Below are positions 6,239-8,288 of a DNA stretch of 11,725 nt, piece after piece. The stretch is from a virus. The DNA is taken from UHGV virus genome UHGV-0243446. One strand, given 5' to 3'. The position numbers and the translations under genes were made by a program. Positions within the stretch are counted from its first letter, which is position 1. Each line of letters opens with the position of its first letter. Below the pieces are notes generated by a model. It was not told the DNA's origin and ran no database searches. It saw only the letters and a program-made list of their open reading frames with translations.

Positions 6239-6439
6239 TCAGGCAGCCTTGTTATTCTGTTTACCAAGTTCTCTGGCAATCATTGCCGTCGTTCGTATTG
6301 CCCATTTATCGACATATTTCCCATCTTCCATTACAGGAAACATTTCTTCAGGCTTAACCATGCATTCCGATTGCAGCTTGCATCCATTGCATCGCTTGAA
6401 TTGTCCACACCATTGATTTTTATCAATAGTCGTAGTCAT
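6239..6439 (-). CDS. ral: Ral-like restriction-alleviation protein (66 aa)
   Basis: 66 aa, the same size as lambda Ral. Its start is overlapped by 17 nt by a 28-aa ORF, which matches the lambda orf28/ral arrangement as I recall it. Product MTTTIDKNQWCGQFKRCNGCKLQSEC... Confidence 0.55.
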   Translation of the reverse strand: MTTTIDKNQWCGQFKRCNGCKLQSECMVKPEEMFPVMEDGKYVDKWAIRTTAMIARELGKQNNKAA

Positions 6440-6509
6440 ACGGATAGTCCTGGTATTGTTCCATCACATCCTGAGGATGCTCTTCGAACTCTTCAAATTC
6501 TTCTTCCAT
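6423..6509 (-). CDS. orf28-like acidic micro-protein (28 aa)
   Basis: Absent from the ORF track. ATG about 6509 with GAGGTGA RBS that overlaps the N stop. Product MEEEFEEFEEHPQDVMEQYQDYPYDYDY; stop overlaps the ral-like start. Confidence 0.4.
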   Translation of the reverse strand: MEEEFEEFEEHPQDVMEQYQDYPYDYDY

Positions 6510-6517
6510 ATATCACC

Positions 6518-6817
6518 TCAAATAAGTGGTTTGCTGCCTAATTTCATTTTCTGGCGACCAACACAAGTCACACCCATTTCACTGCGTGGCTTGCTGTAGT
6601 AAATACGGTTCTGTTTACGCTCGACTTCTTCTGCCTTCTTGCAGCGAAGGCTTCCGAGTGATGCTGCTTTGTCTGCTCTGACGCAACCAGAGAGCTTTAG
6701 CGCAATTTTTCGCGCCAGTCGCTGTTCTTGCATTGCCTGTTCACGTTGAGCCTGTCTGCGTGCTCTGCGGCGATTTCTGGTGTTATCGTCAGCCAGATAT
6801 GTAATGACTACTGCCAT
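6518..6817 (-). CDS. N: N-family transcription antitermination protein
   Basis: ATG at 6817 with GGAGG RBS 5 nt upstream. N-terminal arginine-rich motif (TRNRRRARRQAQREQ). C-terminal region (RKQNRIYYSKPRSEMGVTCVGRQKMKLGSKPLI) resembles lambda N. nutL lies upstream in the leader. Confidence 0.85.
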   Translation of the reverse strand: MAVVITYLADDNTRNRRRARRQAQREQAMQEQRLARKIALKLSGCVRADKAASLGSLRCKKAEEVERKQNRIYYSKPRSEMGVTCVGRQKMKLGSKPLI

Positions 6818-6843
6818 GTTGACCTCCGATGATTGACTTTGGC

Positions 6844-6902
6844 GGTGACGCGCCGGGTGCTTATCTTCCGGTTGCTGTCGTGCAGCTGCACTTCACGTCA
6901 CC
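6844..6902 (-). other. Structured N leader: long inverted repeat (GGTGACG...CGTCACC) enclosing the 12-bp palindrome GTGCAGCTGCAC
   Basis: Seen directly in the sequence between nutL and the N RBS. By analogy with the RNase III-processed hairpin in the lambda N leader. Confidence 0.4.
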
Positions 6903-6923
6903 CCAAAGCCAACTACTCTTTGG

Positions 6924-6966
6924 TTCCCGCATTTCGGCGGGACAATCCCATCAATGTTAAAGAGCC
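6924..6966 (-). promoter_or_regulatory. nutL: boxA (GCTCTTTAACA) plus boxB hairpin (TCCCGCCGAAATGCGGGA)
   Basis: On the minus strand the boxB 19-mer is identical to the one downstream of cro (nutR). The boxA-like CGCTCTT core precedes it. Located about 40 nt downstream of the predicted PL start. Confidence 0.75.
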
Positions 6967-7004
6967 TGCCAATCTGTTCCGTTTGGCTTCCAGCGTCCTG
7001 CTGA

Positions 7005-7100
7005 TGGCTAAAGAATACTGTAGGTATTTTATTGTGTAAATACCCAAGGTATTTATTTTTGGTGAAATAATGATAAGCAAATGAATACAAAGGATATTTA
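7005..7100 (-). promoter_or_regulatory. PL promoter with OL operators
   Basis: Minus-strand -35 TTTACA (7040-7035), 17-bp spacer, -10 TATTCT (7017-7012). 17-bp dyad sites GAATACTGTAGGTATTT (7013-7029), AAATACCCAAGGTATTT (7038-7054) and a weaker GAATACAAAGGATATTT (7083-7099). Same half-site family as the OR sites. Confidence 0.6.
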
Positions 7101-7185
7101 TTTTTTTCGGTGTCTGCTTGTTCAGTGCTTTTTATGCGGGATATGTGAAGTGGATCCCGATAGCTATTGCTGCCGGGATTATGGG

Positions 7186-7575
7186 TTAGTCAGCGAAGGT
7201 TAAGACGAGAATTACCTTAATGATGTCTGCTACAACAGACACGGCCATAGATAAACCAAAGACAATCCAAGCCATAGAGATGTCTTCACTACCATCGTAT
7301 AGAGTTCCGTAATCACTGGTGTAAGGCGTAAATGTCGCGCCTTGATACAACAGGTATAAGCTTGAACCATAGAGGATAAATGCAGATATCCCTTGTATTG
7401 CTATGATCACCAGAATCATGAAACGAGCTGATCTATGCGCCCAAGCCTGGCTTATTTTTTCTGATAGAGATTTCGCAATAAAAGCATGCGCTAAGCCGTA
7501 AATTGTCGAGATTTCCAACATCCCCAAAAAGCTTGCTATAGCGGTTCCAACCATAATCGCCCCTTGCGTGATCAA
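7186..7575 (-). CDS. Small polytopic membrane protein (3 predicted TM helices) in the rex/immunity-region position
   Basis: Track ORF begins with TTG overlapping the cI stop. An ATG about 7554 with AAGGGG RBS is likely the real start (about 122 aa). Three hydrophobic segments of about 22-25 residues. Downstream of cI on the same strand, as rexAB is in lambda. Confidence 0.6.
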   Translation of the reverse strand: MITQGAIMVGTAIASFLGMLEISTIYGLAHAFIAKSLSEKISQAWAHRSARFMILVIIAIQGISAFILYGSSLYLLYQGATFTPYTSDYGTLYDGSEDISMAWIVFGLSMAVSVVADIIKVILVLTFAD

Positions 7576-8288
7576 ACCAGCCTTAGTTTTGTCTCAATTG
7601 CAACGCCTATAATCTTGCAGTTTCCATTGATTGGCACGAGAGGCCATGCAGGATTAAGTCCCTTGAGGTATTTATTTCCGCCGTCGATTATCAGCTTCTT
7701 GAATGTTGCTTCGTTAGAGTCAGAAAGTTTTGCTATGACCAAGCTGCCGTTGATCGCCTCCCTTCCGGTATCGAAAAGAACGAATGTTCCCTCTGGAATG
7801 CTTAACCCAACCGGTGCCGTCATTGAATCACCTTCCACTTTAAGCCAGAACGCATTACCTTGAATATGCGCGTCAGACTCAAGCCAAACATCTATGTCTT
7901 TAATGGTGTATGGTTCGCATGCTTCACACCACGAGCCAGCCTGGATACTGCTTAACACCGGATACCTCTTTCCTGCTCTGTATTCCCCTGCATACCTTAC
8001 GTTGGCATCGCTCTTAAGGCTTTCTGCCTGTTCTGCAACCTTGGCAGCAATTGACTGGCTAAAATCAGCAATTGAGACTTGCAACAGTCGTGCAAAACCA
8101 GATGCAACCTCAACGTTTAGCGCGTTTCTGCCATTAAGATAATGCCCTACCGCTCCTTGGGTGATACCCAGTTCATCAGCGATTGAGTATTGGGTTATTC
8201 CCAATTCTTTCTTTTTTGACTCATACAAAGCCTTAAGCCGCTTAGCGTCTTCGAGCTGTTCTGTCGTCAGTGATTTTTTATTTTCCAT
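7572..8288 (-). CDS. cI: cI-type phage repressor (HTH N-domain plus S24 LexA-like autoprotease C-domain)
   Basis: N-terminus MENKKSLTTEQLEDAKRLKALYESKKKELGITQYSIADELG resembles lambda cI. Ala-Gly cleavage site in IQAGSW. Catalytic Ser in GDSM and Lys in FKKL. Start codon abuts the operator region. Confidence 0.92.
   Translation of the reverse strand: MENKKSLTTEQLEDAKRLKALYESKKKELGITQYSIADELGITQGAVGHYLNGRNALNVEVASGFARLLQVSIADFSQSIAAKVAEQAESLKSDANVRYAGEYRAGKRYPVLSSIQAGSWCEACEPYTIKDIDVWLESDAHIQGNAFWLKVEGDSMTAPVGLSIPEGTFVLFDTGREAINGSLVIAKLSDSNEATFKKLIIDGGNKYLKGLNPAWPLVPINGNCKIIGVAIETKLRLV

Follow-up and report, generated by a model that had tools for sequence, protein, structure and literature searches.

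A stem-loop between nutL and the N gene of an HK620-type lambdoid phage and its probable homology to the RNase III-sensitive hairpin of lambda

The inverted repeat at positions 6844–6902 of the viral DNA analysed here (a stretch of 11,725 nucleotides, referred to below as the window) raises the question of whether the leader of a phage N gene contains a regulatory RNA helix or a protein-binding site in the DNA. In lambda, the corresponding leader carries, in order, NUTL, an RNase III-sensitive hairpin and the N ribosome-binding site (RBS), and cleavage by RNase III prevents N-mediated translational repression. The lambda hairpin is the point at which host physiology, in the form of the RNase III level, meets N autoregulation; it sets the amount of N, which thereby influences the early lysis–lysogeny programme. 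The question for the window therefore has two parts: (i) is the repeat part of an RNA helix that has been selected as such and (ii) is that helix reasonably interpreted as a relative of the lambda hairpin.

The N leader and its stem-loop

The window contains a lambdoid phage immunity and early-left region, oriented as is conventional for lambda. Its nearest relatives are mEpX2, IME10 and Huey, with HK620, HZ41 and HF4s the closest locally. A cI-type repressor gene (7572–8288) and a small gene of unassigned function (7186–7575) lie on the minus strand, as do all of the leader features described here. A promoter scan places pL at 7012–7040, with a −35 element TTTACA (7040–7035), a 17-nt spacer and a −10 element TATTCT (7017–7012), and HK620 annotates pL and OL1–3 at the homologous position. 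Three imperfect AAATACC...GGTATTT dyads (I1, I2 and I6; 7014–7100) overlap pL and correspond to OL1–OL3 of the HK620 annotation, in which a terminator, tIMM, is annotated just upstream. We place the start of the transcript at A7005 on the basis of the sequence ATCAGCAGGACGC at this point, which matches the pL starts of lambda (+1) and of phage 21, whose record gives its ‘transcription start pL’ at the homologous site; the pL leader is therefore 188 nt long.

The nutL site consists of boxA (GCTCTTTAACA, 6955–6965), which is annotated homologously as nutL or boxA in HK620, mEpX2 and phage 21, and of boxB (6925–6942), an inverted repeat predicted to fold as the hairpin UCCCGC-CGAAAU-GCGGGA and located inside the nutL annotation of HK620. 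At the other end of the leader are the N Shine–Dalgarno sequence (SD) GGAGG (6823–6827), homologous to the annotated RBS of phage 21, and the N ATG (6815–6817). The N gene itself (6518–6817) is an open reading frame for a 99-residue antitermination protein; it is annotated as N in near-identical phages, and its product matches phrog_271, ‘anti-termination protein N-like’, with E = 2e-35. By analogy with lambda, N would be the gene whose expression the hairpin controls. We also note signs of mosaicism in N. HK620 matches at 98% over the leader and the 5′ portion of N, a match that begins only at query position 127 of 6500–7110 (about window position 6626) and runs upward from there, and the 3′ end instead matches a phage 21-type N, which the C-terminal part of the product presumably resembles. 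The N of the window has 99 amino acids, compared with an N coding sequence of 273 nt in HK620.

The first-pass annotation described a plus-strand repeat, GGTGACG...CGTCACC, flanking a palindrome and a CCGG pair and lying between nutL and the N RBS. Direct reading finds GGTGACG at 6844–6850 and CGTCACC at 6896–6902 with exactly 45 nt between them, the perfect 12-bp palindrome GTGCAGCTGCAC at 6880–6891 and CCGG at 6853–6856 and 6868–6871, and the coordinates of boxA, boxB, the SD and the ATG bear out the placing of the repeat. These elements stand as described, but their extent does not, since the repeat is only the top of a 20-bp stem at 6832–6913. A repeat search extends the arms to 6839–6850/6896–6907 and 6833–6842/6903–6912, and RNAfold joins them, in the N sense on the minus strand, into an 82-nt element (6832–6913) whose 20-bp stem has one bulged G (6843) and tops out in a three-way junction with two small hairpins, H1 and H2.

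The 5′ arm of the basal stem, GUUGGCUUUGGGGUGACGUG (6894–6913), occupies the boxC position of nutL and contains CGTCACC read on the other strand; in addition to the fold and to covariation, its assignment draws on 12/12 identity with lambda GGCUUUGGGGUG. The 3′ arm, CGCGUCACC-G-CCAAAGUCAAU (6832–6852, with G6843 bulged), is likewise assigned from the fold and covariation and has CACC-R-CCAAAG in common with lambda. Of the inner hairpins, both predicted by RNAfold, H1 (GUGC-AGCU-GCAC, 6880–6891) is the 12-bp palindrome itself and H2 (CCGG-AAGAUAAGCAC-CCGG, 6853–6871) carries an 11-nt loop between the two CCGG motifs. The stem begins 11 nt after boxB and stops 4 nt short of the N SD; its base lies 15 nt upstream of the N AUG.

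That the leader RNA can form an extended stem-loop, as had been proposed, is well supported by folding. An 89-nt segment folds at −40.6 kcal/mol, compared with −24.8 ± 3.3 kcal/mol for 200 dinucleotide shuffles (z = −4.78), none of which folds as well, and the same 20-bp stem is contained in the fold of the whole leader. The antisense strand folds worse (−35.5 versus −40.6 kcal/mol); the sense strand is the more stable by about 5 kcal/mol because three of its pairs are G–U (G6913–U6832, G6909–U6836 and U6895–G6851). The 7-bp inverted repeat alone would be unremarkable, given a total of 17 inverted repeats of 6 bp or more in 500 nt. The element as a whole is well beyond chance, as judged from its fold z-score and from covariation in relatives. 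The double-stranded stem of the sense RNA is stable and spans about two helical turns, as is characteristic of a lambda-type hairpin; at 20 bp with a bulge, this is at the short end for a substrate of Escherichia coli RNase III. The SD is unpaired in the predicted fold of the leader, and any effect on translation must therefore act sterically or through the NUTL complex. A search of 6400–7300 with the curated Rfam families at E-values up to 10 gave chance-level matches only, all below their gathering scores.

Covariation and variation among lambdoid leaders

For comparison, pL leaders were collected without reference to the stem. Viral contigs were scanned for CAGCAGGANGC followed, after a gap of 15–45 nt, by GCTCTTTAAC, a pattern that represents the pL start and boxA only, and together with annotated phages this gave 118 unique leaders. 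A helix was counted when it had at least 10 bp, started 38–80 nt after boxA and ended at most 22 nt before an SD and start codon; this position-restricted search replaced an unrestricted one, which gave spurious G–U-rich helices in some leaders. A qualifying helix is present in 111 of the 118 leaders, with 55 distinct arm pairs, and the inserts above the stem range from about 16 to more than 150 nt.

The lower stem is conserved as GGYTTTGG/CCAAAGYC. The upper stem is variable, yet it is always matched to its partner: the arms are GGTGACGTG/CGCGTCACC in the window, GGTGATGTG/CGCATCACC, GATTGGATG/CATCCAATC and GTTGCAGGTAG/CTATCTGCAAC among the relatives, ACTGGCG/CGCCAGT in P22, GGTGTGTG/CACACACC in lambda and AGTAGCGCG/CGCGTTACT in SfI, with further pairs elsewhere. 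When a 5′ upper arm is set against its own 3′ arm, 7.36 of 8 positions pair and 72% of the arms pair perfectly, whereas against the arms of other leaders only 5.1 of 8 positions pair and 3.7% are perfect.

An alignment of the 20-pair helix over 44 distinct arm pairs (A1) leads to the same picture. Paired bases fill 88.4% of the cells, compared with 70.8% after column shuffling (none of 500 shuffles attains the observed 88.4%) and 30–51% when the partners are slid along the helix. Compensatory changes occur at 13 of the 20 pairs, and the covariation score is 0.465 versus 0.153. The figure of 88.4% is an underestimate because A1 is gapless and six of its rows (L005, L040, L104 and L135, which have a 1 × 1 mismatch instead of the bulge, together with SfI and L017) are shifted by one column in the upper stem. 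In nearly all of the lambdoid pL leaders sampled, the helix is kept by compensatory change, which argues that RNase III-linked control of N is general among these phages, including those that carry Shiga toxin genes.

The inner hairpins can be judged from 24 full elements of the short class represented by the window (alignment A2). The basal stem is 96.2% paired in this set, with seven covarying pairs. H2 is 97.9% paired and shows compensatory changes at two of its four pairs (CG to UA, and AU to GC or UA). H1 is 78.7% paired; its outer pair varies (G–C, U–A, A–U or G–U), as does its loop (AGCU, AGCA, UGCU, AGAU or AGCC). H1 is the least certain of the helices because RNAalifold prefers an invariant UGC/GCA pairing over it. 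We also note that, in leaders of the phage 21, Stx, SfI and HK620 types, the 11-nt loop of H2 (6857–6867; A2 columns 53–63; consensus RRGAUMAGCA) varies less than the stem beneath it, which suggests a role in recognition or in a tertiary contact. Matches within the window to a possible partner of this loop (AGATAAGCA or its complement) were at chance level.

Among 5426 complete E. coli genomes, 410 have the HK620/mEpX2-type element in prophages, where its position bears no annotated feature, and the hairpin is likewise unannotated in the records inspected for lambda, phage 21, HK620, mEp235, mEpX1, SfI and P22. Some records do annotate a plus-strand ‘hypothetical protein’ over the leader (for example, VUF53904.1 in Lambda_ev087, phi296, and 382–594 in L006). 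In the window, the plus-strand open reading frames 6829–6960 and 6833–7039 were rejected as genes; the inserts vary widely in length and the changes are paired and compensatory. Given this RNA covariation and the length-variable inserts, the plus-strand calls are most likely spurious, and the hairpin element explains them.

Several further features of these leaders deserve mention. The 5′ strand of the basal stem has a second potential partner, a segment X with the sequence CCAAAG (6918–6923, minus strand), identified as an inverted repeat and in the minimum free energy (MFE) fold of the predicted 5′ cleavage product. X can pair with CUUUGG (6903–6908) in a 6-bp hairpin that would compete with the long stem, in which the same CUUUGG pairs with the downstream CCAAAG (6837–6842). 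Such an alternative hairpin, of at least 6 bp, is found in 82.5% of 40 distinct relatives versus 29% of shuffles, and it covaries (CCAAAC/GUUUGG, CCAGAG/CUCUGG and UCAAAGC/GCUUUGG). In P22-type leaders and in L072 and L088, the variable base fits the upstream partner and not the downstream one. After cleavage of the long stem, the alternative hairpin would become the 3′-terminal hairpin of the nutL RNA.

The inserts of some relatives resemble tRNA. ARAGORN calls tRNA genes inside the N-leader stem of three leaders, L037 (691–760, plus strand), L104 (1365–1446, minus strand) and L109 (7178–7259, minus strand), as Leu-tag (70 nt) or Pro-ggg (82 nt), with the bulged base as the discriminator. The Rfam tRNA model scores these inserts below its gathering score, and they are therefore tRNA-like at best. 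A T-arm-like GTGGTTCGATTCCAC is also contained in the inserts of L024 and L029. For the window itself, a tRNA or tRNA-like cloverleaf was rejected, as ARAGORN reports no gene and Rfam gives no tRNA match in 6400–7300 at E-values up to 10.

Other leaders differ outside the stem. About 14 of them (L023, L027, L075 and L114 among them, and also CUS-3, which is L136) have a module of about 215 nt between an HK620-type hairpin and the N RBS. Repeats of the CAATTCCA type flank this module, inside which a boxA-like GCTCTTTC or GCTCTTCC precedes a G+C-rich hairpin; together these may represent a second nut-like site. In P22- and Stx-type leaders (L005–L008, L015, L016 and others), folding of the stretch between boxA and the start codon pairs the boxA–boxB spacer UUUAACUUCGAUG with the SD region CAUGAGGAUUAAA over 7–12 bp, which closes the whole leader; the corresponding pairing in the window is limited to ACC/GGU. 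In these phages the pairing may connect nutL directly with the SD, or it may reflect no more than chance complementarity between a CU-rich segment and an SD. MFE folds from boxA to the start codon are dominated by weak boxA/spacer–SD pairing and were not used to define the stem.

It is conceivable, though we think it doubtful, that the basal stem (5′ GGYUUUGG/3′ R-CCAAAGYC) is a modular processing cassette common to lambdoid pL leaders, with interchangeable inserts that include tRNA-like ones, a 5′ strand selected to pair with two partners and a possible double role as substrate of RNase P and RNase III. To our knowledge, these three properties have not been described before.

Proposed role and rival readings

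It is likely that the 82-nt element is homologous to the RNase III-sensitive hairpin found in lambda between NUTL and the N RBS. The first-pass annotation had suggested an analogy with an RNase III processing or translational control element of lambda, and the analogy is upheld by the position of the stem-loop, the greater stability of the sense strand, the covariation and the identity of the stem base; RNase III cleavage of the window hairpin, and an effect of that cleavage on the translation of N, would follow by extension from lambda. Published work on lambda provides the framework. According to PMC5725501 (citing Wilson 1997, 2002), translation of N is repressed by N and Nus factors at NutL, and the same paper describes the lambda RNA between NutL and the SD as highly structured. 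Positive regulation of lambda N mRNA by RNase III is mentioned in the part of PMC9032294 that cites Kameyama 1991.

A mechanism for the window can be proposed on this basis. The predicted fold and the covariation show that the sense RNA forms the stem, which is selected as a helix. Once folded, the stem places boxB, which precedes it by 11 nt, no more than a helix width from the SD, which follows it after 4 nt. If the leader behaves as in lambda, this proximity, together with a bulky helix 15 nt upstream of the AUG, would allow the N/Nus complex at NUTL to repress N translation, and a rigid helix in the ribosome landing zone may also hinder ribosome loading. Adjacency to the RBS is not universal, however, since the module of about 215 nt parts the hairpin from the N RBS in the roughly 14 related leaders that have it. 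From the lambda system and the identity of the stem base, RNase III may be expected to cut the lower stem on each strand close to the bulge, approximately between G6903 and G6902 and between C6841 and A6840. The corresponding cuts in lambda, which we take to be at about +88 and +197, flank the bulged A195 and would produce ends with a 2-nt 3′ overhang; this is the geometry expected of RNase III and supports these positions without proving them.

Cleavage at the proposed positions would yield two products, a nutL RNA of about 103 nt and an N mRNA whose leader of about 23 nt is predicted to be unstructured. Indeed, the predicted 5′ product folds as boxB plus the CCAAAG/CUUUGG hairpin (−15.2 kcal/mol, z = −2.6), and the predicted 5′ end of the N mRNA folds at −4 kcal/mol (z = −0.6). 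By analogy with lambda, nutL would thus be uncoupled from the RBS, repression would be relieved and N translation raised, tying the level of N to the RNase III activity of the host. The conserved hairpin at the end of the 5′ product could, in addition, protect the nutL RNA.

The stem-loop could instead act without RNase III, as a structural spacer or steric element that sets NUTL close to the RBS, or it could be processed as an acceptor-like minihelix by a different nuclease, for example RNase P. The 7-bp upper stem GGUGACG/CGUCACC, followed by an unpaired purine and then CCA, does mimic the 3′ end of a tRNA, and the ARAGORN calls in the three relatives fall exactly inside the stem, with the upper stem as acceptor and the start of CCAAAG as CCA. 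Furthermore, rnc70, a mutant RNase III that binds without cutting, still affects lambda N according to the section of PMC8708148 that cites Dasgupta 1998, and cleavage is therefore not the sole route to an effect. The resemblance does not extend to the window, however, where ARAGORN calls no tRNA, the junction has two arms rather than three and the stem pairs the CCA with UGG; for the relatives that ARAGORN does call, too, the Rfam model stays below its gathering score. The identity of the stem base to that of a leader known to be regulated by RNase III, that of lambda, also makes action independent of this enzyme unlikely, although of some weight.

Readings in which the RNA helix plays no part appear less probable still. 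One is that the flanks, GGCTTTGG... and ...CCAAAGYC, serve mainly as recombination linkers (‘boundary sequences’) for lambdoid modules and that the helix is incidental. The wide range of insert lengths between conserved flanks would fit such a role, as would the combination of the same hairpin with various nutL, N or downstream modules (in SfI and in the L023 class) and the annotation of the entire cI–N intergenic region of CUS-3 as ‘bsq5; boundary sequence’. Linkers would nevertheless leave unexplained both the sense-strand-specific G–U pairs and the compensatory changes in the upper stem, where 29 distinct 5′ 9-mers each match their own partner. We consider an incidental helix quite improbable; a linker function as such is compatible with RNA function and does not replace it. 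The possibility raised in the first-pass annotation that the DNA palindrome is a protein-binding site fares worse. A perfect 12-bp palindrome with CAGCTG at its centre, GTGCAGCTGCAC, might attract a dimeric protein, or the whole inverted repeat might extrude as a cruciform, and a related 12-mer in some relatives, TTGCAGCTGCAA, is palindromic too. But perfect 12-nt palindromes occur in the window at chance frequency (4 versus 2.9 expected), and the repressor operators of the phage lie elsewhere, at 7014–7100. Among 17 variants in relatives, moreover, only two are perfect palindromes and 10 keep the 4-bp RNA stem: the central changes AGCA, UGCU, AGAU and AGCC break the DNA symmetry and leave the RNA stem in place, one G–U pair included. 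This retention of the RNA stem where the DNA dyad is lost argues against a protein-binding site, and we give such a site or a cruciform very little credence. Finally, a strong G+C-rich hairpin in a leader might be an intrinsic terminator or attenuator upstream of N. The stem is not followed by a U-tract, the sequence after it being CAUCGGAGG, and a terminator scan of 6500–7300 returned no minus-strand site and a single plus-strand match, as expected by chance; we have rejected this candidate and regard attenuation here as scarcely plausible.

Comparison with lambda and other known systems

The reading that we favour, homology to the lambda hairpin, is best assessed by setting the two leaders side by side. 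At the same place, the lambda leader has GGCUUUGGGGUGUGUG...CACACACC-A-CCAAAGC, which folds at −54.5 kcal/mol (z = −4.2). The pL transcripts share the order nutL, hairpin, SD and N. The base of the 5′ arm, GGCUUUGGGGUG/GGCTTTGGGGTG, is identical in the two phages over 12 nt, and the 3′ arms are identical in CACC-R-CCAAAG save for the bulged base, a single purine at the same position that is A in lambda and G in the window. The differences lie mainly above and beside this shared base. Lambda has an insert of about 90 nt above the stem, whereas the window has 41 nt with two mini-hairpins; the upper stem is UGUG in lambda and GACGUG in the window; and the stem ends 7 nt before the SD in lambda compared with 4 nt in the window. 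The boxB, N and repressor specificity of the window are of the HK620 type, unlike those of lambda. The kind of element is thus familiar from lambda; the HK620/mEpX2-type version is unannotated in the inspected records and has no Rfam family. A shorter form of the lambda device sits unannotated in phages of this type and in E. coli prophages, and the alignments assembled here are ready for an RNA-family model, which Rfam does not have.

Hairpins of the short class in phage 21, mEp235, SfI, phiKp_30 and many Stx phages resemble that of the window in the three-way junction, the H2 loop, the position of H1 and the basal stem. They differ from it in their upper stems, which have compensating partners (GAUGGCGCG/CGCGUCAU, GGUGAUGUG/CGCAUCACC and AGUAGCGCG/CGCGUUACU). 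Phage SfI is a natural chimera in this respect, combining the nutL, RBS and N of lambda with a short-class hairpin like that of the window, which argues that the short and long hairpins are functionally interchangeable.

A more distant parallel is found in the leader–trailer stem of the E. coli rrn operons. There, too, a nut-like element binds Nus factors, and the GU-rich boxC downstream of it supplies the 5′ strand for a long-range duplex; in both systems this strand is tethered near RNA polymerase by Nus factors. The rrn duplex that flanks 16S rRNA is the primary target of RNase III (PMC8632103, PMC2724277). It encloses 1.5 kb of rRNA and serves maturation, whereas the stem in the window closes a loop of 41 nt and its output would be the translation of a regulatory protein.
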